Origin: a virus
Taxonomy: Duplodnaviria; Heunggongvirae; Uroviricota; Caudoviricetes
Direction: 5' to 3' (one strand)
Length of the DNA stretch: 64,000 nucleotides
IMG/VR virus record: IMGVR_UViG_2541047680_000004
Under the pieces are notes generated by a model, which had not been told where the DNA came from, made no database searches, and saw only the letters and a list, made by a program, of their open reading frames with translations. A program made the position numbers and the translations under genes. Each line of letters opens with the position of its first letter. Positions within the stretch are counted from its first letter, which is position 1. Positions 4,400 to 64,000 of this stretch are shown piece by piece.

Positions 4400-5008
4400 T
4401 CAGTTATACAGATTTCTATTTATTACCGGTACTCTGCCATTTACACTAAAACTATGGCCGCCATTAAGTTGGTTTACGAATATAGAGCTAACAGTATTTC
4501 CATATGCCGCATATCCATAAACCATTGTCATGGCCCCGCCCGGTACTGGAACCGCGAACACATTTGCATATGTTGGGATTATCGCTGGCGGGTAATCAAA
4601 AACATGCCCTCCAGAACTGTTCCACTCCGTATTATTAAGAAAGGTAAATGAAAGTGGGATATTTGCCGTATTATAGATCTCCTCTCCTCGCGCATTGAAA
4701 AAACTCATGCCCCAAGTTTCTTTTTTGGCTATACCTTTCGAAAATACGTATATCGTGGCACTAGAGTCGCTACCCTGACCTCCGAAACTGTAAATCACCT
4801 GGTTGTTACGCACTATTCTGTTGGCTATTAATGAAACAGCTTTCGAATAGGCAACAAAAATCATCGGTGAACGATCTGGAGATATTTGGGTGTTAAACTC
4901 TGTCCCGCCGGACAAAGAAACAACCTGCTTTCTCTGAAAAACGATAGGAGACAAAGAAGGAGACATCCAGACCTTCCCGTCAGATCGATATATCTTGCTT
5001 CCGTACAT
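4400..5008 (-). CDS. hypothetical tail-fiber-associated protein
   Basis: 202 aa, Gly/Ser/Asn-rich; start overlaps upstream stop in TAATG arrangement (translational coupling). Confidence 0.35.
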   Translation of the reverse strand: MYGSKIYRSDGKVWMSPSLSPIVFQRKQVVSLSGGTEFNTQISPDRSPMIFVAYSKAVSLIANRIVRNNQVIYSFGGQGSDSSATIYVFSKGIAKKETWGMSFFNARGEEIYNTANIPLSFTFLNNTEWNSSGGHVFDYPPAIIPTYANVFAVPVPGGAMTMVYGYAAYGNTVSSIFVNQLNGGHSFSVNGRVPVINRNLYN

Positions 5009-5322: not shown

Positions 5323-8300
5323 TTATTCTTTAGGTGAATTTAACTTCGTTTCAAGCTCCTCAACCCTTTTGGTCAATTGCTGAATATGATGAATGAGTGG
5401 TACAACCAAACGCTCATACATCACTCCTTCAGCGACCATACCATTTGAGGAAATATCTCCTGGAGAATCATTATTTGTTGGTTCACGCCAATGGACATAT
5501 TGCGGGGCAATCTCACCAACCTCTTCAGCAATAAGGCCGTAATACCCCCAATCCTTTCGGTCACCTCGACAAATTGAACGATACCAAACAGGTCTTAATG
5601 ACAAAAGTTCATCAGCATATCGATCTTGTAATGTTTCAATATCCTTTTTATAGCGCCTTGAAGATGTTGAACGCCAAACTGTATTGATACCTGGGTTTGG
5701 ATCAATGTACATATTGGCACCGCTAGTAGTTGTGCCAATATCCCATATAGCAAACCCTCCACTACCGCCTGATTTGACAACCAGTGTTTCAGCAATAATA
5801 TCCAGGTTGCCACTATAGCCTGTCAGTGATGATCTGCTTGCATAGGAACTTAGAAGGTTTGTTACCTCTGTTTTCGTATAAGCATTAAGGTTAGCCGCAG
5901 TCAAAGTAATATCGGCAGAGCCATCAAACGCCACACCAGCAATTTTCCTTGCTGTCTGCAATTTTGTGGCTGTTGCGGCATTACCAGTAGTATTCTGATT
6001 ACCGGTTGTATTCACACCAGGGATTGAATCCTTAGCGGTATATACCTGCGCCCACGCTGACCATGCCGCATCAGTGGTATCTCTTCTGGAGCGAATGAAA
6101 ACCGGCGCATGTGCACCGCTCGTACCACTCCAGCCAATAAGCAACTCGCCCTCACCAGCAGCACTCGCACCTTTCATGTGCAATACGTTGCCATACGTGG
6201 TCGGGTAGCTATTGTTGTACGCCTCGTACATTTGAATGCCAGCAGTACCTTGAGTAGAACCGCTTAAAGCCGTAACTCGACCACGAGAAACCAATGTATT
6301 AATATTGATATCACCTGAACCATCAAACTTAACACCATTGATGTTTCTCGCTGTTTGCAACTTCGTAGCTGTTGAAGCATTGCCATTCAAGCTACCATTT
6401 ACGCCACCAGTAACATTTAGTCCATTACCAATAGACACAACACCGCTGCTATTATTAATTATAATCGGTCGCAAACTGTTCCATGAACCTAACGTATCTC
6501 CTGATGCTGTTAGCATGAAATATGTGCTGCCGCCGTCATTACGGATAAAGAACCCGTAGTTACCGTAAGCAATGCGGAAACCATTTGCATATTTTGAAAC
6601 GATCTCACCAGAAGACGTCAACCCTCCAGATAATGTGCCACCTGAAAGCGGTAATGCTCCTACATCAGAAGCTGTTGGTTTGTTTCTAGTGTTATAAGAA
6701 CGACGCCAGCCTGGCGCATAATCACTCCCATTGTACACATAAATAAATTCCGCATTATTAACACCACCATGACCTGATGTTGTTGCCGTTGTAACACGAA
6801 TAGTGTAGTGGCTTGTTGCCTTATTACTAAACACCTCAATCACGGAACCAGATAGATCGATCCTACCGCAACCAGTGTCGTCTATATAATTATTGTTGGC
6901 GTAAGTCCATGAGCACCGTGCGATCCAATGTTTGTTTGTAAATGCCCCCTGATTGTTTAGCCAAGTTATAAATTGAGCAGTCGTAAATGCCGTTCCGTTA
7001 CCACTATTTAACCATCCAGCGGCAGCGGTTGGTGCGTTTATATCAGCCGGCTGAGGCATAAATCCAGTCGTGTAAACCTGCTCCCAACCACTTTCAAAAC
7101 CATAGCCATCTCTTGAGGAACGGTAGAACAGACCACCATTTTTATAGTGAGCTTTAATTTGAAGCGTACGGCAACTACCTACACCGGTATAAAAGTTGGC
7201 AAGAATATAACTGGCGCCTGTTCTAGTTACATTGTAAGCACCAGATTCAGCATTCCACGGCACGCCACCATCAGCATCCGCATATGACCCTGTTGCCCTT
7301 CTTGCGAAAGCGGCAACATGCGCAGCGGTTAAAGTGATATCAGTAGAACCATCAAATGGAACACCGGATATTTTTCTTGCAGTCTGAAGTTTTGTAGCAG
7401 TTGCAGCATTACCAGTGGTGTTCTGATTACCCGTAGTGTTTACACCTGGAAGGTTGATATTTGCAGAACCGTCGAAACCAACTCCACCGATAGATCTTGC
7501 CGTCTGCAATTTCGTTGCTGTACTTGCATTACCATTTAATGTTCCGGTGATCCCACCAGTAACAGACAACGGACCTGAAACTGTTCCTCCGGTTGTTGGC
7601 AGTGCTCCAATATCTAACGGCGTCGGTTTCTGATGTGTGCTATACATCGTATAAACAACACCATCGGTAACGCTGGAAGGCTTACTCGCTGAATATGTTG
7701 GCGATGTATAAACAGAAACTGACGCATTTGCAGTACAATCCCAATGGATATTTACACTCGTCGCATAATTGCCAATTTCAACGTAAATATCATATGTATC
7801 GCCGGATGTGTTGATCCAGGCGAAATTCGTTAATCCGACAGCTGTACGCTTCCACAAAGCACCTGTAATCCCTTTGGGGTTTCCATTGCCTGCTCGTAGA
7901 ACCAGTTCTGAAATGCCTGCCTGATGTGGGGAGCCGACGTTGTAACCAGCGCCACCAATCAATGCGATGTAAACGATGGAACTCGCTTGTGGCATTGTAA
8001 CAGTAGCCAGTTTGAACCACCCGGCCCCGCCAGAGAAAGACATCGTTATTGAATTTAAAGTACCAATATCTTTCGGCGTTAATGTGATATCCGCAGTCAG
8101 TGCTTTCCCGTTAATTTTTCGGTTAGATGGCACCCTGCTGTTCGCATTGTCATTGACTACTTTAACTGCTTTTGGCGTTGCGGCCAGCGATTCACTGGTG
8201 CTGTCGACAGCACTGCTAAGTTTCACAACACCTTTAGTTGTAAGGCTTGCGTCTTCCATCGCAACTGCACCGGCAATCTCTTCAGCACGATCAGCAGCAG

Positions 8301-32004: not shown

Positions 32005-32020
32005 AAAACAACTTGTTTAC
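32005..32020. promoter_or_regulatory. family-1 operator-like dyad (AAAACAA-C-TTGTTT)
   Basis: matches dispersed consensus AGAAAACAAnTTGTTTTCT; upstream of terS. Confidence 0.45.
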
Positions 32021-32030
32021 TGCATCTGCT

Positions 32031-32049
32031 AACCAACTTGTTTTCTGGG
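32031..32049. promoter_or_regulatory. family-1 operator-like dyad
   Basis: AACCAACTTGTTTTCTGGG; second copy upstream of terS. Confidence 0.4.
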
Positions 32050-41142: not shown

Positions 41143-41177
41143 ATAACAAATTGTTTTCTTGTTGGTGTTAATTATCG
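41143..41177. promoter_or_regulatory. family-1 operator/promoter element
   Basis: AACAAATTGTTTTCTTGTTGGTGTTAATTATCG; GATAAT-like -10 on gene strand. Confidence 0.5.
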
Positions 41178-41848: not shown

Positions 41849-41882
41849 GATGGTTTCCTTATTAAGTTGCTTCAGTGAAATC

Positions 41883-41922
41883 ATTTTCACAAATCAGATA
41901 AGGCAGAAAACAAATTGTTATC
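41883..41922. promoter_or_regulatory. family-1 operator element (B-form)
   Basis: ATTTTCACAAATCAGATAAGGCAGAAAACAAATTGTTATC. Confidence 0.5.
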
Positions 41923-42810: not shown

Positions 42811-42834
42811 AAACAACTTGTTTTCTCAATGGCG
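42811..42834. promoter_or_regulatory. family-1 operator element
   Basis: AAACAACTTGTTTTCTCAATGGCG about 12 nt upstream of the start codon. Confidence 0.5.
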
Positions 42835-43294: not shown

Positions 43295-43329
43295 TAAACA
43301 ACATGTTTTCTTGATGGTGTTATTATCGC
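43295..43329. promoter_or_regulatory. family-1 operator/promoter element
   Basis: TAAACAACATGTTTTCTTGATGGTGTTATTATCGC. Confidence 0.5.
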
Positions 43330-43444
43330 AATAACGCACAGGCGAAAAAGGATTTTATTCCGGTGAATATGGTTTTGGCAGTGAGTTTTCAGGTTCAGTA
43401 CCGAGTATACTTTTTACATTATTCTGATTTAGTGGCCGAAGGTG

Positions 43445-43452
43445 GCTGGTGG
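43445..43452 (+). other. Chi sequence GCTGGTGG
   Basis: exact octamer about 200 bp from iteron cluster 2. Confidence 0.45.
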
Positions 43453-43644
43453 GCAGAATAATCCTCTCCCCGAAAACCTACTGAAATCGATTGTGACCCG
43501 TTGGCTGTCTGGCACAATTACGCTGTAGCTGGGCATTCAGAGGGAATCCAGCGGTAAGCAAGTCCGCCTACGTGAGCGCCTCTCTTCTTCCCGCACATTA
43601 CAGGTGGGTAGCCGCAACTCTCCCTCTCGCTATACCGGTACGCC

Positions 43645-43777
43645 GCCGTTCCTGAACCGGCATCGAGCCTTTTCCCGAAATCCACACAGGCAACTCGACC
43701 GTTTCCCTGAAAACCTCCAGCCGTTCCCCGAAGGCAACCCAGCCTTTTCTGTAGCGGGATGCAACCTTTTCCCTGTA
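43645..43777. repeat. iteron cluster 2 (six direct repeats, about 22-bp phasing)
   Basis: units at 43645, 43666, 43697, 43719, 43741, 43763 (e.g. GACCGTTTCCCTGAAAA); extra copy near 43470; same family as cluster 1. Confidence 0.65.
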
Positions 43778-44100
43778 TGGACCGAAGGCTGACCGTAGGG
43801 GTTTTACGGGGGATAAAATCAGGAGTTGAATAAATACGAAAAAGGAGGCGACACCCCTCCTTCCCTCCCCACTTATACATACCTGGCTTCTTCGCTATAC
43901 ATGTTGTGTTTTCTTCGTGTTTTATCTGTCTCAACCTCTCTATAGGCGTTAATGCTCACTCCTTCCAGAACCTTCTATACGGCGACTATTTCTGTTGGTG
44001 AATTGGGTGTGTTGTTCTCTCTGTCGGTGTATGTGGTTTCGTTCGTTTTGCGGTGGTTCTTCTATGGGGTGTTCTCGTCGTTTTGGTGATTGTTCTTCTC

Positions 44101-44460
44101 CGTGTATGGAGTAATGGCAGGTGGGCGATTCCTTTCGTTATTGTGTTTGAGTTGTTTGTCTGGAGTGTGTGAAAGGCTTTTGTAGTTATTCGTGTATTGG
44201 GTAATGGCGTTTCCCGTGATTGTTATGTTTCGTGTCTTTTGGGATTGAGAGAAACCTTGCGGTTACAGGCTTCGTTGGGGTTTCAGTGATTCTGGTGTTT
44301 CTTCGCTGTTTGGGTAATGGCGTGTCGTGGGTATCGCGCGTATGAATGTTTTCGGATTGCCTGTGAAAGTTAGGTTGGTTGTCCGGTAGCCTGGGGAGAA
44401 GAGGTGGGTCTTTTCGGTAGCCTGCCATAAAGAGGTTGGTTGTTTTGGGTAATGGTATAT
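44101..44460. repeat. direct repeats in GT-rich ORF-free region
   Basis: CGTGTAT(T)GG(A/G)GTAATGGC at 44101, 44191, 44304 and degenerate copy at 44437; strong G+T excess on plus strand across 43960-44700. Confidence 0.55.
44385..44455. repeat. about 70-bp G/T-rich repeat, copy B
   Basis: pairs with 41208-41280. Confidence 0.5.
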
Positions 44461-44701
44461 GTGTTATTTAGTTGTTTTGTTATGCCTGAAAATAAGTTGT
44501 TTATATGGTTGTGTAACGCAACGGGAGCGATTTTGAGCGTGTGTTTTTGTTGGTAGTGTGTTGAGTCGTCTGTGGTGAAAATTGGACGCTGTGGCGCTAT
44601 CTGCTGCGTAGAATTACGGGTATAAGAAGTGATGTGTGATAACGTCAATTTTTTAGACCAAATCGGGAGAAAGCGTTGATGTTTCGTTGATCTGTTATTT
44701 A

Positions 44702-44728
44702 GTTGTTTTCTTATTGGTATAAACAACC
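44702..44728. promoter_or_regulatory. family-1 half-site element
   Basis: GTTGTTTTCTTATTGGTATAAACAACC; would drive minus-strand transcription into the GT-rich region. Confidence 0.35.
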
Positions 44729-44845
44729 ATAACCTATTGATATTTAATGATGTGATTGCTGGTATGGGAGGGGAGTAGTGGCGATCAACGGGTTCTTATA
44801 GAAAAGAATCAAATTGTGACCGCCATTATCAATAAGTTGCAACCG

Positions 44846-45451
44846 TTAGTTGTTCAGATAAACATTTGGAACACGGACGTAGAACTTACTGTTACCGGTA
44901 AGTTCCAGAGTAATGTTAATGTCATTACCATTGTCTAGTGTAGCCGTCGCTCTATAGAACTTATCAGTTACCTTTTCGTCAATATTAACCTTGATGCATT
45001 TCGCCGCAGTAGAACCATTATGCTCTTTCAGAATAGTTGTCACGACAGGACATGCGGCTTCCTCAATGACGCCATCTTCCTGTTTCGGTATTACAATGAA
45101 GAATACGTAAGCCAGCAAGGTAACGACTATAATAAATGGCAGTCTACTGCTCTTTGTTATAGTCGCACGCTTCCATAGGTAGATTGGCATGAAAACTATT
45201 CCCCATAAAATAGCAGGTGGCTCATAGCCGGATTCCGAAATCGCCATTCTGTCAGCCACTAATAATCCGATGGCAGCTAAACTTCCAATTAATACAGCAT
45301 AATTTGCATACTCTTCGTTCGGAATGCCGAAGCAAATTGGAATAAAAGCTAAAATCCACGCATAAGTGTTATTCAAAGGTTTTTTTTGTTGGTTATTGGT
45401 TTCCATCACATCCATCTCATCACTTAAATTACTTGTATATATTATCAACAT
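44846..45451 (-). CDS. membrane protein (three or four N-terminal TM helices plus soluble C-terminal domain)
   Basis: hydrophobic segments WILAFIPICF, VLIGSLAAIGLLV, AILWGIVFMPIYL, FIIVVTLLAYVFFIV; AT-rich segment. Confidence 0.5.
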   Translation of the reverse strand: MLIIYTSNLSDEMDVMETNNQQKKPLNNTYAWILAFIPICFGIPNEEYANYAVLIGSLAAIGLLVADRMAISESGYEPPAILWGIVFMPIYLWKRATITKSSRLPFIIVVTLLAYVFFIVIPKQEDGVIEEAACPVVTTILKEHNGSTAAKCIKVNIDEKVTDKFYRATATLDNGNDINITLELTGNSKFYVRVPNVYLNN

Positions 45452-45527
45452 TTAACAAACATAACCTAAACACACAGCAGATATAGCATTACAAACTCAT
45501 TGTGAAAACCATTATCATAGGAAACGA

Positions 45528-45713
45528 TTAGATGAGATGGTCTAATTCATCATCTATCATGGCTTTGACGCTGGAGTCATTCACTCCATATTTATTTATG
45601 AGCTGTTTCAGCTCTGGCGAAAACTGAAGGTAGATATCGTGAGCGTTTTTCACTGTAGGTTCAACGCCACGCATTTCAAGCGCCTTTAGTAGATATGAGT
45701 CTTCTTTAAGCAT
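45528..45713 (-). CDS. hypothetical small protein
   Basis: 61-aa ORF. Confidence 0.3.
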   Translation of the reverse strand: MLKEDSYLLKALEMRGVEPTVKNAHDIYLQFSPELKQLINKYGVNDSSVKAMIDDELDHLI

Positions 45714-45749
45714 AAATTCTCCGTTATCTAGTATGAAGCGATTGCCGGA

Positions 45750-46049
45750 TTACCATTGCCAGCACTCAAGCCCTTCAACGACCGGTGCGCCACAATCAAA
45801 ATGTACAGAGTCAAAGCCTACATCAAGTACTTTCTGAATGTTCGCAATCGCGCCCTCGGATATACCATATCGACGCAACTCATCTATCCAGTCATCGTCC
45901 TGTAACCCGGCGTGGACAATGCAACCGTACTCAATTTGTGAAACCCAATCCAGCTCATTGCTTGCGATCATGAATCGGCGAGCATCTTCCTCTGATGTAT
46001 GAGATGAGCTGATCAATGCCACCTGGTAGGCTTGGGTAATGTTCAACAT
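45750..46049 (-). CDS. hypothetical protein
   Basis: ATG start at 46049 with RBS GGAGTGG; family-1 operator pair immediately upstream. Confidence 0.4.
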   Translation of the reverse strand: MLNITQAYQVALISSSHTSEEDARRFMIASNELDWVSQIEYGCIVHAGLQDDDWIDELRRYGISEGAIANIQKVLDVGFDSVHFDCGAPVVEGLECWQW

Positions 46050-46062
46050 TTCAACCACTCCA

Positions 46063-46095
46063 AAACAAGTTGTTTTCTTATGTGGTTTATTATCT
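46063..46095. promoter_or_regulatory. family-1 operator/promoter element
   Basis: AAAACAAGTTGTTTTCTTATGTGGTTTATTATC. Confidence 0.5.
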
Positions 46096-46107
46096 CCATC
46101 AACAAAA

Positions 46108-46130
46108 GGCAGAAAACATATTGTTTTAGG
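46108..46130. promoter_or_regulatory. family-1 operator element (B-form)
   Basis: GGCAGAAAACATATTGTTTTAGG about 40 bp from metG terminator. Confidence 0.5.
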
Positions 46131-46210: not shown

Positions 46211-48244
46211 TTACTTAACCTGGTGGCCAGGTTTAGCACCAGCATCCGGGCTTAACAGGAAGATATCTTTCCCGCCGGGGCCAGCAGCCATCACCATGCC
46301 TTCAGAGATACCGAAGCGCATTTTACGCGGAGCCAGGTTAGCCACCATAATTGTGTGACGACCAATCAGTGCCTGTGGGTCTGGATAAGCAGAACGGATG
46401 CCTGAGAAGACATTACGCTTTTCACCACCGAGATCCAGCGTCAGGCGCAGCAGCTTGTCAGAACCTTCAACAAACTCTGCGTTTTCAATCAGCGCCACGC
46501 GCAGGTCAACTTTAGCGAAGTCGTCAAAGGTGATGGTTTCCTGAATCGGGTCGTCTGCCAGTGGGCCAGTTACCGGTGCGGCTGTGGCTTTCACTTCTTC
46601 TTTGGATGCTTCCACCAGTGCTTCCACCTGTTTCATATCGATACGGTTATACAATGCCTTGAACGGATTCACTTTATGGCCCAGCAGCGGTTGCTGGATA
46701 CCATCCCAGGTCAGTTCTGTATTCAGGAATGCTTCTGCACGTTCAGTCAGTTTCGGCAGTACCGGTTTCAAGTAAGTCATCAGCACGCGGAACAGGTTAA
46801 TGCCCATAGAGCAAATCGCCTGCAGATCGGCATCGCGTCCTTCCTGCTTCGCCACCACCCACGGAGCCTGTTCATCAACATAGCGGTTAGCCAGGTCAGC
46901 CAGTGCCATGATTTCACGGATAGCTTTACCAAATTCGCGGCTTTCCCATGCTTCGCCAATCACTTCAGCGGCATCAGTAAAGGTTTTGTACAGTTGCGGG
47001 TCAGCCAGTTCGCTTGCCAGCACGCCGTCAAAACGCTTGTTGATAAAGCCTGCATTACGGGAGGCCAGGTTAACCACTTTGTTCACGATATCGGCATTCA
47101 CGCGCTGAACGAAATCCTCCAGGTTGAGATCGATATCATCAATGCGCGAAGAGAGTTTCGCAGTGTAGTAGTAACGCAGGCTGTCGGCGTCAAAATGATT
47201 CAGCCAGGTGCTGGCTTTAATAAAGGTACCGCGAGACTTAGACATCTTCGCGCCGTTCACCGTCACATAGCCATGAACAAACAGGTTGGTCGGCTTGCGG
47301 AAGTTGCTGCCTTCCAGCATTGCTGGCCAGAACAGACTGTGGAAGTAAACAATATCTTTACCGATGAAGTGGTACAGCTCGGCGGTGGAGTCTTTCTTCC
47401 AGTATTCATCGAAGCTTACGCTGTCGCCGCGCTTGTCGCACAGATTCTTGAAAGAACCCATATAGCCAATCGGCGCATCTAGCCAGACGTAGAAATATTT
47501 ACCCGGCGCGTTCGGAATTTCAAAACCGAAATACGGCGCGTCGCGGGAGATATCCCACTGTTGCAGGCCAGATTCAAACCACTCCTGCATTTTATTTGCC
47601 ACCTGCTCCTGCAACGCACCGCTGCGGGTCCATGCCTGCAACATTTCGCTGAAAGAGGGCAGATCAAAGAAGAAGTGTTCAGAATCACGCATTACCGGCG
47701 TAGCGCCAGAAACCACCGATTTCGGCTCGATCAATTCAGTCGGGCTGTAGGTCGCGCCGCAGACTTCGCAGTTATCGCCGTATTGATCCGGGGATTTACA
47801 TTTCGGGCAGGTGCCTTTCACAAAACGATCCGGCAGGAACATGCCTTTTTCCGGGTCGTACAACTGAGAGATAGTGCGATTTTTAATAAAACCGTTCTCT
47901 TTCAGGCGAGTATAGATAAGCTCAGACAACTGACGGTTCTCTTCGCTGTGCGTCGAGTGATAGTTGTCATAGCTGATGTTAAAGCCTGCGAAATCAGTCT
48001 GGTGTTCCTGACTCATTTCGCCAATCATCTGCTCCGGTGTGATACCAAGTTGCTGTGCTTTCAGCATGATCGGCGTACCGTGGGCATCGTCGGCACAGAT
48101 GAAATTAACCTCGTGGCCGCGCATTCGCTGGTAACGAACCCAGACATCAGCCTGGATGTGCTCCAGCATATGGCCGAGGTGGATTGAGCCGTTAGCGTAC
48201 GGCAGCGCGCACGTCACCAGAATTTTCTTCGCGACTTGGGTCAT
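46211..48244 (-). CDS. metG: methionine--tRNA ligase
   Basis: 677 aa from [25 protein letters not shown] (HIGH-type) with KMSKS; C-terminal tRNA-binding domain; near-identical to enterobacterial MetG as I recall it. Confidence 0.97.
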
Positions 48245-48401
48245 AGTAGGCATTACTTCTTTGTAGTGAAAAGGGGCTTGATAGTAACAAAATGGCCTTA
48301 TGTCTGCCATGTGATAACAGCATTTCTCATAAATGATTAAATGTCGCAGCTGGAGTACACTACAAGGCGACAATTGCGCAAATTAAAATAAAGGAGACGG
48401 G

Positions 48402-49502
48402 ATGAGCGAGTCCAAATCGCCGGATGCCCTGAGAGCAATGGTAGCCGGTACGCTGGCTAATTTTCAGCACCCAACCCTGAAACACAACCTGACTACGCTT
48501 AAAGCGTTACACCATGTTGCGTTGATGGATGACACACTGCATGTCGAACTAATCATGCCTTTCGTGTGGAATAAGCCTTTTGAAGACCTGAAAGAGCAAT
48601 GTAGTGGTGATCTGCTCCGTATCACTGGCGCAAAGGCTATTGACTGGAAGCTGTCGTACAACATTGCCACGCTTAAGCGCGTCAAAAACCAACCAGGCAT
48701 TAATGGTGTTAAGAATATTATCGCCGTAAGCTCAGGCAAGGGCGGTGTAGGCAAATCGTCCACAGCAGTAAACTTGGCACTGGCTTTGGCTGCTGAAGGT
48801 GCGAAAGTTGGTATTTTGGATGCCGATATCTATGGTCCATCAATTCCAACCATGCTGGGCGCGGAAAACCAACGTCCAACCTCACCGGACGGTACTCACA
48901 TGGCACCTATCATGTCTCATGGCCTGGCAACCAACTCTATTGGTTATCTGGTCACCGACGACAATGCAATGGTGTGGCGTGGACCGATGGCCAGCAAGGC
49001 GCTGATGCAGATGTTGCAGGAAACACTGTGGCCTGATCTGGACTATCTCGTTCTCGATATGCCGCCGGGCACTGGTGATATTCAATTGACGCTGGCGCAG
49101 AACATTCCTGTAACTGGTGCGGTTGTGGTAACTACGCCGCAAGACATCGCGCTGATCGATGCGAAGAAAGGCATTGTGATGTTCGAAAAAGTCGAAGTGC
49201 CGGTACTAGGTATCGTCGAAAACATGAGTGTGCATATTTGCAGTAACTGCGGTCATCACGAGCCAATTTTTGGCACCGGTGGCGCACAGAAACTGGCCGA
49301 GAAATACAACACGCAGTTGTTAGGCCAAATGCCACTTCATATCTCTCTTCGTGAAGATCTGGATAACGGAACACCAACCGTTATTAGTCGTCCAGATAGC
49401 GAATTTACGGCTATTTATCGTGACCTCGCAGATCGCGTTGCTGCCCAAATGTATTGGCAAGGTGAAGTAATACCTGGCGAAATCGCATTCCGCGCAGTGT
49501 GA
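48402..49502 (+). CDS. apbC: Fe-S cluster carrier ATPase Mrp/ApbC
   Basis: P-loop SSGKGGVGKS, CxxC motif (CSNCGH); divergent from metG as in E. coli. Confidence 0.95.
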   Translation: MSESKSPDALRAMVAGTLANFQHPTLKHNLTTLKALHHVALMDDTLHVELIMPFVWNKPFEDLKEQCSGDLLRITGAKAIDWKLSYNIATLKRVKNQPGINGVKNIIAVSSGKGGVGKSSTAVNLALALAAEGAKVGILDADIYGPSIPTMLGAENQRPTSPDGTHMAPIMSHGLATNSIGYLVTDDNAMVWRGPMASKALMQMLQETLWPDLDYLVLDMPPGTGDIQLTLAQNIPVTGAVVVTTPQDIALIDAKKGIVMFEKVEVPVLGIVENMSVHICSNCGHHEPIFGTGGAQKLAEKYNTQLLGQMPLHISLREDLDNGTPTVISRPDSEFTAIYRDLADRVAAQMYWQGEVIPGEIAFRAV

Positions 49503-53201: not shown

Positions 53202-53653
53202 TGTTTAGCTCCTGTACGAAGCTCAGCGGCAAAAGCTACTGCGTGATCATGATGTTCAAGTGTGTATGCGCACTCAGCAAACATCTCCACGCCCTGCGCA
53301 CGTACTTCAGCCAGAAAAGCATCGGTTGCTGGAGTCTCCGTTAATTCGCTAACCCAATTATCTCCGTGTTCCTCGGCACACATCGCATCGAATGCTCGCT
53401 CAGATTCTTTCAGGGCTGCATTCTCCGCCGCTAATGCGTCTCTCTGCGCCCGCAACTTCTCAATTTCGGCAGCCATGTAGTAACCAACCATAGCGAAAGT
53501 GGCGAAAGGGTAGTCCGAATCATCAGGAGATACGGAGGCCATTAGCAGACCATCGTGCATGTTCTGGCTTCCATCAGTGATGGATACCGCATAAGAATCG
53601 CTGGTTTCCCGTTTATACAATACGACGACCGGGTTCTTGATTTTCTCTCTCAT
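53198..53653 (-). CDS. hypothetical protein
   Basis: 151-aa ORF. Confidence 0.4.
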   Translation of the reverse strand: MREKIKNPVVVLYKRETSDSYAVSITDGSQNMHDGLLMASVSPDDSDYPFATFAMVGYYMAAEIEKLRAQRDALAAENAALKESERAFDAMCAEEHGDNWVSELTETPATDAFLAEVRAQGVEMFAECAYTLEHHDHAVAFAAELRTGAKQ

Positions 53654-54207
53654 TACGATGCCTCTAACTTGTCTAACTCTTTCAGCCCTTCACGTACCGC
53701 GTTCACAATGCGTTCCAGATACTGGTATTTCGGGTTTGGTATCGTTGGCCAGTCGGCATACCACGGATCATCACCAAATAGATTCAGCAGTTTGTTACCG
53801 ATGCCGAGACAACAGCAGCTTTCTTTGACATCATCTGCGTTTTCCGCCTCGACCCACATTTCGCGAGCCTGTACAGCATCGATTTCTCTCTCTCTTCGTA
53901 ACTTTATGATTTCTGACTTCACGAAAAGCAGATTTGCATCGTTGTCATCGTCGACCGTGCTTAGCAGTTGAGGGTCGAAATTGTCGATTAGATAGTCGTT
54001 GCTAACTCGCTTGATGAACGTCTGCACATCATCACCGCCCATAGCAAACCAAGCCGCAGTCCACGCTTTTCCGTAGCAGGTGATGGTGATTCTTCCCTTA
54101 CCAGGTTCGTAGTTTTCAATCATCACTCGAACCGGATCGAGGCGTTCCAGATCCGTCAGCACAAAGGAAAGAACATCTATTTTTTCGACCTTCATGCAGC
54201 CTCCCAC
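53653..54207 (-). CDS. hypothetical protein
   Basis: 184-aa ORF. Confidence 0.4.
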   Translation of the reverse strand: MGGCMKVEKIDVLSFVLTDLERLDPVRVMIENYEPGKGRITITCYGKAWTAAWFAMGGDDVQTFIKRVSNDYLIDNFDPQLLSTVDDDNDANLLFVKSEIIKLRREREIDAVQAREMWVEAENADDVKESCCCLGIGNKLLNLFGDDPWYADWPTIPNPKYQYLERIVNAVREGLKELDKLEAS

Positions 54208-54833
54208 GCGCTCCAGATCAGCGATTTGTGTTTTTCATAACGTTTGATGTGTACCGGTTTCAGAAGCGCAATACCTTCTGTCACTTTCGCCATTGCGCTT
54301 AATAGCAACGGGTGTTCTATACCTACCCTCTCCATGTACTCGACAACATCAGCATTGGCACCAATCTCTTTGCCGTTAAAGAGTACGTCCAGCATCAGTT
54401 CTTTCTCTGCAAGGTAGATAGCTGAAAACTCAGGATCGCGACTCACGATAGAAGAGGTATTGTCCAGCAGGTCAGCCAGCTTGATCATGCGCGTCTGCAT
54501 GTTGAGATTTTGCTCCAGCTCCCGGACATTGATGATGAAACGCTGTATTCGATTGCCGTCTTCTGGCCTTGCAATGTTGGTCAGAGCCAGAACCATTTCA
54601 GCTACGCGCTCACCGAAGTGATCACGAACCATCTCTATGGTTACATTTGTGTCTTCGACCACATCATGCAGAAGCGCCGCGATCTGCATCTCCACGGTTC
54701 CGTCATGCAATGCAACGATCTCTCGGACAGCAACCGGATGATTTATATAATCTTCACCTGTATATTTTCTTTTCTGACCAACGCCACCATGAGCGCCAGC
54801 GGCGAACATATGTGCTTCGGAAATACTAGACAT
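54192..54833 (-). CDS. SpoT/RelA-like HD-domain hydrolase (small alarmone hydrolase candidate)
   Basis: YINHPVAV and AALLHDVVEDT match the (p)ppGpp-hydrolase HD signature; 213 aa, no synthetase domain. Confidence 0.75.
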   Translation of the reverse strand: MSSISEAHMFAAGAHGGVGQKRKYTGEDYINHPVAVREIVALHDGTVEMQIAALLHDVVEDTNVTIEMVRDHFGERVAEMVLALTNIARPEDGNRIQRFIINVRELEQNLNMQTRMIKLADLLDNTSSIVSRDPEFSAIYLAEKELMLDVLFNGKEIGANADVVEYMERVGIEHPLLLSAMAKVTEGIALLKPVHIKRYEKHKSLIWSAWEAA

Positions 54834-54842
54834 TCTTAACTC

Positions 54843-54905
54843 CGTTGTTTTCTAGTTGTGGTTATTTTCACAAATAAGAAAAGGCAGAAAACAATTTATT
54901 TAAGG
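54843..54905. promoter_or_regulatory. composite family-1 operator pair upstream of HD-hydrolase gene
   Basis: TTGTTTTCT half-site plus AAGGCAGAAAACAATTTATTT. Confidence 0.5.
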
Positions 54906-54952
54906 CCATAAGTTATGGCCTTTATTTATTCATGCAGAAGGATTTGTAGCGC

Positions 54953-55333: not shown

Positions 55334-56037
55334 CAGCGCACCTCACCATCTTTATGGCTGGAGTTAACTTCCGCCATTAAATGTCTGACGTAATCGACAA
55401 GAGAGCCACCTGGTGGAATCTGGCATTCCTCAACTAACTGGAAGTAGATATCCGCAGCATTACGTGTATTGCTACCCGCGCATATTCTTTCTTCCCGAAG
55501 TGCATGAAGCTCGTTGATCAAACGGTCACACTCTCCGTTACGCTGATCCACAACAGCCTCAAGCTCTGCGACGCGTTCACCTGGCGTCTTACCTTCTTTG
55601 CGTTGGATGGTAACGACGAAATCGCCAATTGCAGGGACGTTGTAATCCAGCTCAAGGTAGTTTTTGGCACCGCTGCGGACGAACTCACCCGCGAACATGG
55701 TGGCGAACATCGCAGAGGCCACTTCGCCGTTGAAAAGTGACTCCAGATCTAACGGAGTCCCGGCAGCAAGAGCCTCTTTTGCTGTATCCATTGCATCCAT
55801 GAACCGATCAAACTCATTAGCGCGCTTTTCCAGGTCTTTCCATTGCTCGCTCCAACGTTTGGCAACGAAGTCTATGAATGTTTTCGCGGATTCATCAAAA
55901 TCCCCCTCAAACTTAACGATGCCTTTATCAATAATGATCTGGCCTACCGCATCCTCTGCATAACCTTTCAATGTAAACTTGAAAGAAAAATCAGAACGGC
56001 CTGTGACGTTAAAATGCTCTAACTGGAGGTTGCTCAT
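55333..56037 (-). CDS. hypothetical protein
   Basis: 234-aa ORF. Confidence 0.4.
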   Translation of the reverse strand: MSNLQLEHFNVTGRSDFSFKFTLKGYAEDAVGQIIIDKGIVKFEGDFDESAKTFIDFVAKRWSEQWKDLEKRANEFDRFMDAMDTAKEALAAGTPLDLESLFNGEVASAMFATMFAGEFVRSGAKNYLELDYNVPAIGDFVVTIQRKEGKTPGERVAELEAVVDQRNGECDRLINELHALREERICAGSNTRNAADIYFQLVEECQIPPGGSLVDYVRHLMAEVNSSHKDGEVR

Positions 56038-57796: not shown

Positions 57797-57830
57797 AAAT
57801 AATTTGTTTTCTGATTGGTGTAATTATCGC
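57797..57830. promoter_or_regulatory. family-1 operator/promoter element
   Basis: AAATAATTTGTTTTCTGATTGGTGTAATTATCGC. Confidence 0.5.
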
Positions 57831-58510: not shown

Positions 58511-58549
58511 AAACAAGTTGTTTTCTTATTGGCTTTATTGTGATGTGGC
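58511..58549. promoter_or_regulatory. family-1 operator/promoter element
   Basis: AAACAAGTTGTTTTCTTATTGGCTTTATTGTGATGTGGC. Confidence 0.5.
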
Positions 58550-59238: not shown

Positions 59239-59270
59239 AAAACAAGTTGTTTTCTAATTACATAAATTGC
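59239..59270. promoter_or_regulatory. family-1 operator/promoter element
   Basis: AAAACAAGTTGTTTTCTAATTACATAAATTGC. Confidence 0.5.
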
Positions 59271-63324: not shown

Positions 63325-63447
63325 GTAAGTCTCCTTCTGTTTAGTTGCATTTGCGTTTCGATGGCTACATTTTGACTAAACCTATCAGGCGGAAAAGTAT
63401 TAAATACAGGCAGGAAATGATTGAAAGGCGACTGTTCTTTAAAAGAA

Positions 63448-63784: not shown

Positions 63785-64000
63785 CTGATGAATCCCCTAA
63801 TGATTTTGGTAAAAATCATTAAGTTAAGGTAGATACACATCTTGTCATATGATCAAATGGTTTCGCGAAAAATCAATAATCAGACAACAAGATGTGCGAA
63901 CTCGATATTTTACACGACTCTCTTTACCAATTCTGCCCCGAATTACACTTAAAACGACTCAACAGCTTAACGTTGGCTTGCCACGCCTTACTTGACTGTA
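63785..64000 (+). mobile_element. IS10 (IS4 family) end, partial, continues beyond window
   Basis: sequence from CTGATGAATCCCCTAATGATTTTGGTAAAAATCATTAAG matches the IS10 terminal sequence as I recall it. Confidence 0.85.
63892..64000 (+). CDS. IS10 transposase, N-terminal fragment (partial at window edge)
   Basis: translation MCELDILHDSLYQFCPELHLKRLNSLTLACHALLD. Confidence 0.85.
   Translation, partial: MCELDILHDSLYQFCPELHLKRLNSLTLACHALLDC

Follow-up and report, generated by a model that had tools for sequence, protein, structure and literature searches.

A probable PaSpo-type small alarmone hydrolase and a conserved inverted 9-mer pair at its predicted promoter in an SSU5-type phage-plasmid

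The 64,000-nucleotide viral DNA of IMG/VR record IMGVR_UViG_2541047680_000004 (hereafter the window, meaning this whole stretch) is part of an SSU5-type phage-plasmid, and an original prediction made from its letters had placed a SpoT-like HD hydrolase under a double operator at 54192-54905. This interval comprises one minus-strand open reading frame (ORF) of 213 amino acids and 72 nt of upstream sequence. Using sequence profiles, a structural model, orthology and comparison with related elements, we identify the gene with high confidence as encoding a small alarmone hydrolase (SAH), a stand-alone member of the RelA/SpoT-homologue superfamily, which belongs to the PaSpo subgroup and is carried as an accessory gene of the phage-plasmid. 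The gene is not new: its family has already been named, tested and taken into routine laboratory use as a reagent. The only part of the present observations with some freshness is a family-wide promoter or operator element, AGAAAACAA, which is found as an inverted pair upstream of the hydrolase.

The coding unit is made up of the following:

54192-54833, minus strand: SAH gene of PaSpo type, with a single HD domain followed by C-terminal helices; start ATG at 54833-54831 and stop TGA at 54194-54192 in the ORF list
54840-54843, minus strand: Shine-Dalgarno sequence GGAG, 6 nt 5' of the SAH ATG, as read from the sequence

The closest match to the window is the Escherichia fergusonii plasmid pRHB19-C05_2 (110.8 kb), with which it is colinear at about 98-99% identity. 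The 1.8-kb hydrolase locus is 99.9% identical to this plasmid, and RefSeq annotates an ORF with identical coordinates on it as an 'HD domain-containing protein'. The ORF and its profile matches bear out the protein originally described, namely one with the motifs HPVAV (residues 32-36) and LLHDVVEDT (residues 54-62) and devoid of a synthetase. Pfam recovered HD_4 (PF13328; residues 8-133) with 61.4 bits against a cutoff of 27.2 bits (E=1.1e-16), and HD_4 and HD were the only Pfam domains detected in the protein. PHROG 990, a 'metal-dependent phosphohydrolase', matched residues 4-209 (7e-54), and the match to the NCBIfam model TIGR00691 (spoT_relA) was confined to the first 123 of its 687 positions. 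Neither Pfam nor TIGR00691 gave any indication of a synthetase, TGS or ACT domain in the 213 residues.

Sequence searches against the PDB recovered SpoT, Lmo0812, human MESH1, the Rel hydrolase domains, the Pseudomonas aeruginosa SAH and a (p)ppApp hydrolase as the best matches. In the alignments H32, H56-D57, E60-D61, D121 and N125 fall onto the catalytic residues of MESH1, SpoT, Lmo0812 and Rel (HP, HD, ED and D..N), so that the active-site residues, which the original prediction had allowed might be missing on proper alignment with the MESH1 and SpoT HD domains, are all present. A 57-sequence family alignment revealed R22, K23, Y24, H32, P33, H56, D57, E60, D61, T62, R95, R98, K118, D121 and N125 to be invariant. 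The AlphaFold2 model built from the family alignment is all-helical (pLDDT 96.9, pTM 0.92), and a Foldseek search of the PDB with this model placed MESH1, Thermus thermophilus Rel, PaSAH, RelH and full-length SpoT on top, with probability 1.0 and TM scores on the target of 0.70-0.77. The fold in common with MESH1 (human HDDC3 and its Drosophila counterpart) and with the SpoT/Rel hydrolase domain (TM score of about 0.75 on the target) accompanies a sequence identity of only 25-28%; the protein lacks the synthetase, TGS and ACT domains, and its approximately 35 C-terminal residues (helices 175-212) extend beyond MESH1 and are missing from shorter relatives of 165-190 amino acids. Sequence, profile, fold and orthology agree in supporting its membership of the single-domain RelA/SpoT-homologue hydrolases and of their PaSpo subgroup, the latter being assigned by orthology to the named reference member, SSU5 gp099, rather than by a phylogeny of our own.

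This reference member, PaSpo-SSU5, encoded by the Salmonella phage SSU5 (gp099, SSU5_099; AFL47026), aligns with the window protein over 213 of 213 residues without gaps at 87% identity, and the SSU5 genome is 86% identical to the hydrolase locus at the nucleotide level. The two are alike in their length of 213 amino acids, in the overlapping gene downstream, in a promoter with a hairpin and the 9-mer pair, and in the type of element that bears them. They differ by 27 substitutions, none of them catalytic, in the upstream neighbor (a 126-amino-acid Eaa-like gene in the window and SSU5_098 in SSU5) and in the host genus, which is Escherichia for the window element and Salmonella for SSU5.

The paSpo subgroup of SAHs was defined by Atkinson et al. 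2011 (PMC3153485), and the SSU5 SAH was put into it by Jimmy et al. 2020 (PMC7229694), who also found that it neutralises all five of the toxic small alarmone synthetases (toxSAS) tried, namely CapRel, PhRel2, FaRel2, PhRel and FaRel (PMC7229694). It has further been stated to strip the pyrophosphate that FaRel2 installs on the tRNA 3'-CCA end, with leaky expression being enough to protect (bioRxiv 2024.07.05.602228). The same enzyme has been used in the production of CapRelSJ46 (PMC9712102) and of PhRel2, and its neutralisation of toxSAS is cited by Potrykus et al. The counter-toxin role originally put forward for the window gene is therefore supported by experiment on an 87%-identical orthologue (PMC7229694; bioRxiv 2024.07.05.602228), and the rescue of toxSAS toxicity that had been suggested as a check is already on record for this orthologue, since Jimmy et al. 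2020 and later work used the SSU5 SAH. In the portions of these papers that were accessible, no test of the SSU5 enzyme in a real SSU5 infection or induction was found. Two further single-domain RelA/SpoT-homologue hydrolases, PbcSpo of Salmonella phage PVP-SE1 and ATfaRel of Cellulomonas marina, likewise neutralise all toxSAS tried; they represent other SAH subgroups, and ATfaRel lies within a toxin-antitoxin operon, whereas the window gene is stand-alone.

By homology, the window protein would be an Mn2+-dependent HD-domain 3'-pyrophosphohydrolase, in which H32, H56, D57 and D121 are expected to hold the metal, with R22/K23, E60-D61 and N125 positioning substrate and water. Its activity would take the 3'-diphosphate off (p)ppGpp and (p)ppApp and, as with the SSU5 orthologue, clean tRNA 3'-CCA ends that have been pyrophosphorylated by toxSAS. 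The element would probably use it to disarm CapRel/FaRel/PhRel-type toxSAS defences during establishment or replication, and possibly to lower the alarmone levels of the host as well; both the substrate range and the role in infection are extrapolated here from the orthologue. Several observations weigh against this view. The window protein differs from the tested orthologue at 27 of its 213 residues and the evidence for activity comes from the orthologue only, whose effect was seen on co-expression in E. coli, outside phage-plasmid infection or induction, so that a natural counter-defence is unproven. The gene is also dispensable in the element family, with Cyrano and many other relatives being without it, and decapitated or HD-to-HG variants of the hydrolase circulate.

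The main job of the enzyme might instead be the degradation of host (p)ppGpp, with the stringent response thereby turned off and replication, rRNA and tRNA synthesis and translation kept high in lytic growth or plasmid maintenance; neutralisation of toxSAS would then be a side effect. This possibility, which is compatible with our preferred explanation and which we consider open to real doubt as an account of the main role, draws on the fold and catalytic residues that the protein has in common with the (p)ppGpp-hydrolysing MESH1 and SpoT/Rel domains, on the wide spread of SAH homologues among large lytic phages and jumbo phages (243 phage records, of which many belong to jumbo phages), many of which have nucleotide-metabolism genes, and on the presence of nrdAB, thyA, a dihydrofolate reductase gene and dnaE on the element itself. 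However, the hydrolase is absent from many otherwise similar elements, and such patchiness suits an accessory gene in an arms race better than a core replication aid. That another substrate is preferred seems improbable, be it (p)ppApp only, as for Aph1/PaSAH, with protection of the host from Tas1-type secreted toxins, or NADPH or PAPS, as for human MESH1. Foldseek and phmmer do also match the B. caccae (p)ppApp hydrolase, PaSAH and the complexes of MESH1 with NADPH and PAPS, and the orthologue rescues cells from the (pp)pApp-producing toxin FaRel; but its rescue extends to several kinds of toxSAS, including tRNA-modifying ones, which points to a broad 3'-pyrophosphate specificity. Least probable by far is that the hydrolase is the antitoxin of an element-borne toxSAS pair. 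Antitoxins of the SAH type do exist, as in C. marina ATfaRel (PMC7229694), but no RelA/SpoT synthetase is annotated anywhere on the complete near-identical 110.8-kb plasmid, the neighboring proteins are without a synthetase domain, and the SSU5 orthologue was termed stand-alone by the authors who tested it (PMC7229694). A toxSAS partner on the element was accordingly rejected, and we regard the hydrolase as stand-alone rather than an antitoxin because of the lack of an annotated synthetase toxin on this plasmid.

The stand-alone hydrolase is likely to be transcribed from a promoter of its own that is bracketed by a 9-mer, TTGTTTTCT at 54845-54853, and its exact inverted copy, AGAAAACAA at 54886-54894; the two lie 41 bp apart from start to start with 32 bp between them. 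The region contains the following features:

54845-54853, minus strand: proximal 9-mer, an exact match that reads AGAAAACAA in the sense of transcription, at about +4 to +12 of the predicted transcript
54864-54872, minus strand: predicted extended -10 element TGTGAAAAT (TG-T-GAAAAT), with the hexamer GAAAAT at 54869-54864 and a 10-nt spacer to the proximal 9-mer
54879-54885, minus strand: GCCTTTT element, followed after 9 nt by the -10 hexamer
54886-54894, minus strand: upstream inverted 9-mer, an exact match overlapping the -35 position; its sequence on the transcribed strand is TTGTTTTCT
54902-54922, minus strand: perfect 10/10 palindrome AAGGCCATAA-n-TTATGGCCTT, a terminator-like hairpin between the upstream 126-amino-acid gene and the promoter

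In the proximal 9-mer the second half of the palindrome is replaced by the Shine-Dalgarno sequence, giving the order AGAAAACAA, C, GGAG and the ATG at 54833. The transcription start is predicted near 54857. The -10 hexamer is kept in SSU5 and in the phage Cyrano, and GCCTTTT recurs at equal spacing in about seven promoters of the window (including that at 41864) and also in the SSU5 and Klebsiella loci. A scan for the sigma-70 consensus gave no minus-strand promoter at the SAH locus, and the promoter proposed here rests on the repeated architecture and not on a match to the consensus. Control by CRP was considered and rejected: a TGTGG-N6-TCACA site at 54857-54872 overlaps the -10, and the single match in the window, against 2.9 expected, is not significant. 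This CRP-like site is kept in SSU5.

The palindrome, within which the interval 54192-54905 ends, points to an RNA hairpin closing the upstream message at its 3' end, a reading that stems from one stem pair whose two members have both changed between the window (T-A) and SSU5 (C-G); in Cyrano the same position is U.G on the minus-strand RNA. The tail of the hairpin on the minus strand departs from a canonical U-run, and a simple terminator scan called the hairpin on the plus strand only. RNA folding of the intergenic region returned just this terminator-like hairpin, with a modest z-score of -2.4, and an Rfam search revealed no known RNA family in the SAH leader.

The 9-mer is strongly over-represented in the window, with 13 copies against 1.23 expected and none of 100 shuffles reaching 13, as are its palindromic form AAACAA-N-TTGTTT (21 against 6.3 expected) and pairs of 9-mers with a 32-nt gap (two against 0.07 expected). 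Nearly all of the 13 copies stand shortly before the start of a minus-strand gene. Other copies of AGAAAACAA or AAACAA-N-TTGTTT are situated at 1138-1153, 32006-32046, 41144-41159, 41905-41920, 42811-42826, 43296-43311, 44703-44711, 46063-46126, 57797-57812, 58511-58526 and 59240-59255, each of them 10-45 nt before a minus-strand gene start. Eleven copies in the window display a single architecture, in that most have a GATAAT/GAAAAT-like hexamer 10-11 nt upstream and all face the start of a minus-strand gene 10-45 nt away. The genes behind these promoters include the small-terminase operon, a DUF4942 methyltransferase and a TerB-like gene, with two tandem copies of the element preceding the small-terminase/late operon. 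An nhmmer model of the promoter module recovered its 11 training sites only, which makes it a count and not an independent confirmation. On the near-identical plasmid there are 19 exact copies, about 16 of them promoter-like.

The arrangement extends beyond this element. The 41-bp pair recurs in the window at 46070/46111, in SSU5 at 4450/4491 and 7167/7208, and in Klebsiella at 5491/5532, 9588/9629 and 8941/8982. SSU5 has eight copies of the 9-mer in 13 kb, including the 41-bp pair before its hydrolase and before SSU5_104; in a 12.6-kb locus of a Klebsiella SSU5-like element no other 9-mer is as common as AGAAAACAA (10 copies, with 41-bp pairs here too), and the hydrolase found there is 52% identical and in a different operon. 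In the literature that we searched on SSU5/pHCM2 promoters or transcriptomes there was nothing usable, and no description of the AGAAAACAA element was found.

As judged from its sequence conservation, the 9-mer pair is a genuine conserved regulatory feature. Of the double operator originally proposed, what stands is a repeat pair that is real, non-random, conserved and placed over a promoter; the operator function and the binding protein are still putative. A DNA-binding protein clamping the promoter is favored by the constant distance of the inverted copy, by how often the copies are palindromic and by their placement over the -35 and about +4 to +12. The arrangement suggests that the 9-mer promoters are co-regulated by one DNA-binding factor, which would most simply be a repressor covering the -35 region along with the start site. 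With somewhat less than even confidence, the pair may further be read as one case of an undescribed cis-element (AGAAAACAA, often AAACAA-N-TTGTTT, with a 41-bp inverted copy at some promoters) that is conserved across genera in SSU5-type phage-plasmids and would define a dispersed regulon under one element-encoded DNA-binding protein. The hydrolase would then fall into a co-regulated set of early or anti-defence genes, kept off in the plasmid state and switched on at induction or entry. Dispersed repressor-site systems of this kind are represented by the P1 C1 operators, the mycobacteriophage L5 'stoperators' and the RK2 KorB OB sites. As comparators for the 9-mer only, these likewise have a short site that is repeated genome-wide at promoters and in intergenic gaps, sometimes paired and often in one orientation; they are unrelated to it in sequence, and repression in the present system is putative.

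Certain features leave the operator reading in doubt. The 9-mer is highly asymmetric, stands at a fixed distance from the -10 and is identical in Klebsiella, which suits an operator and a core promoter or leader element equally; the regulator search gave no binding protein. This search covered the Pfam domains of the proteins behind other 9-mer promoters, two of which have paired sites, and found no helix-turn-helix among them; it also covered the XRE-like regulator WP_001282576 on the plasmid, outside the window, which has no 9-mer site near its own gene. No candidate for the cognate DNA-binding protein emerged from either. It is quite possible, though short of probable, that the 9-mers are family-specific promoter parts, the upstream copy serving as a weak -35 (TTGTTT) and the downstream copy as a conserved initial-transcribed or leader sequence helping initiation or translation. 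Strict orientation, a constant spacing from the -10 and identity between genera make such a core element equally compatible with the data: a -10-like hexamer is always found 10-11 nt upstream of AGAAAACAA, which keeps a single orientation relative to the gene, often abuts the Shine-Dalgarno sequence directly without the second half of the palindrome, and is identical across genera, whereas immunity operators usually diverge. Against this stand the recurrence of the 9-mer in inverted form on the upstream side of the -10, with a constant offset of 41 bp and outside the transcript of that promoter, and the many copies that form the 13-15-bp palindrome AAACAA-N-TTGTTT, which is typical of a dimeric DNA-binding protein.

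Comparison of related elements points to the hydrolase being an accessory cassette. The gene is present on 143 PLSDB plasmids (Escherichia 48, Enterobacter 41, Salmonella 39, Citrobacter 14 and Shigella 1), which are almost all non-mobilizable and include Salmonella plasmids of roughly 107 kb. Its flanks occur on 292 plasmids against the 143 with the gene, and we hence regard the hydrolase as an accessory cassette. In the protein database there are 1,557 relatives at E<=1e-5. The gene has evidently been lost or inactivated in some lineages, as judged from their sequences. In variant P0010 a Walker-A fragment, joined on at the EDT motif, takes the place of the N-terminal catalytic half, and in variant P0012 the N-terminus of the 234-amino-acid gene two positions upstream is fused to the C-terminal two-thirds of the hydrolase, both being without H32 and the HD dyad; the P0009 lineage reads LLHGVIEDT, with HD changed to HG.

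Cyrano (pLF82), a proven inducible SSU5-like phage-plasmid (PMC9928086), has the hydrolase flank in common with the window but not the hydrolase. Its homology spans the upstream gene, the hairpin, the upstream 9-mer and the -10, and ends near 54859, with a different gene beyond. As this break falls inside the promoter, the hydrolase cassette appears to have been swapped at that point, and conserved promoter modules may serve as recombination joints for the swapping of accessory cassettes. The Cyrano gene behind the homologous promoter is not among the genes above background in the lysogen, a weak and indirect hint (PMC9928086).

In Klebsiella SSU5-like plasmids (L007/L008, 6001-6639) the hydrolase (52% identity) is third in a small operon upstream of the DUF4942 methyltransferase gene, whereas in the window it lies downstream of such a gene; this difference in position suggests that the cassette moves inside the early accessory region. 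The surroundings of the SAH gene in the window contain orphan DNA methyltransferases and TerB/TciA-like and Ead/Ea22-like early genes, and the element as a whole has tail, capsid, portal, terminase and ParB-like genes along with many small early genes. Directly behind the hydrolase lies a further gene:

53653-54195, minus strand: downstream gene of 180 amino acids, function unassigned, with an ATG that overlaps the SAH stop (ATGA); PHROG 3451

The overlap, which is also present in SSU5, indicates that this gene, for which Pfam gave no match, is probably translationally coupled to the SAH. It was rejected as an obligate partner, as it is unlinked to the SAH in the Klebsiella relatives. Positions 105-282 of PHROG 3451, the C-terminal two-thirds of the profile, cover the whole of this gene, and positions 13-101, the N-terminal third, match the N-terminus of the 234-amino-acid gene at 55336-56037, two positions upstream of the hydrolase. 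The split profile suggests that the hydrolase and its upstream neighbor sit within a recombined, once single gene, as a sign of mosaic assembly.

The window has additional features of note away from the hydrolase. At 46211-49502 there is a full-length metG (methionine-tRNA ligase, minus strand) with a divergent apbC/mrp; its approximately 90% identity to the E. coli chromosomal metG-apbC locus indicates capture of a host locus, and complete E. coli genomes have the segment at 223 plasmid places. The element thus has a second methionine-tRNA ligase as well as a tRNA-repairing hydrolase, and a link between them is speculation. The approximately 1.5 kb at 43300-44830 are without an annotated gene in the closest plasmid, are strongly strand-skewed, with a GC skew of +0.37 and an AT skew of -0.31 over 44000-44999, and contain degenerate direct repeats such as TGTATTGGGTAATGG (three times) and their own 9-mer promoter at 44703, which points inward; the start of the 44703 transcript is kept in the SSU5 and Klebsiella loci. 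A long non-coding RNA is one possibility for this region, and a replication/partition site another. Adjoining a paired-motif promoter, 44832-45759 has no alignment to the otherwise colinear closest plasmid and contains a 201-amino-acid ORF (44846-45451, minus strand) and a 61-amino-acid ORF, making it a variable accessory hotspot. At 63830-63899 on the minus strand Rfam recovered RNA-OUT, the IS10 antisense RNA, with 98.8 bits; from this match and from the end of colinearity with the reference plasmid at 63398 we infer an IS10-type insertion at the end of the window.

Phage-borne alarmone hydrolases are a plausible general counter to toxSAS defences such as CapRel, and the SSU5 orthologue is the reagent that laboratories use to tame toxSAS toxins. 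The copy in the window adds one more allele of a gene present on at least 143 enterobacterial PLSDB plasmids. SSU5-type elements could show whether the hydrolase protects the phage-plasmid from toxSAS when it actually infects or is induced, and which factor reads the conserved AGAAAACAA element, which appears to organise transcription of their accessory region.

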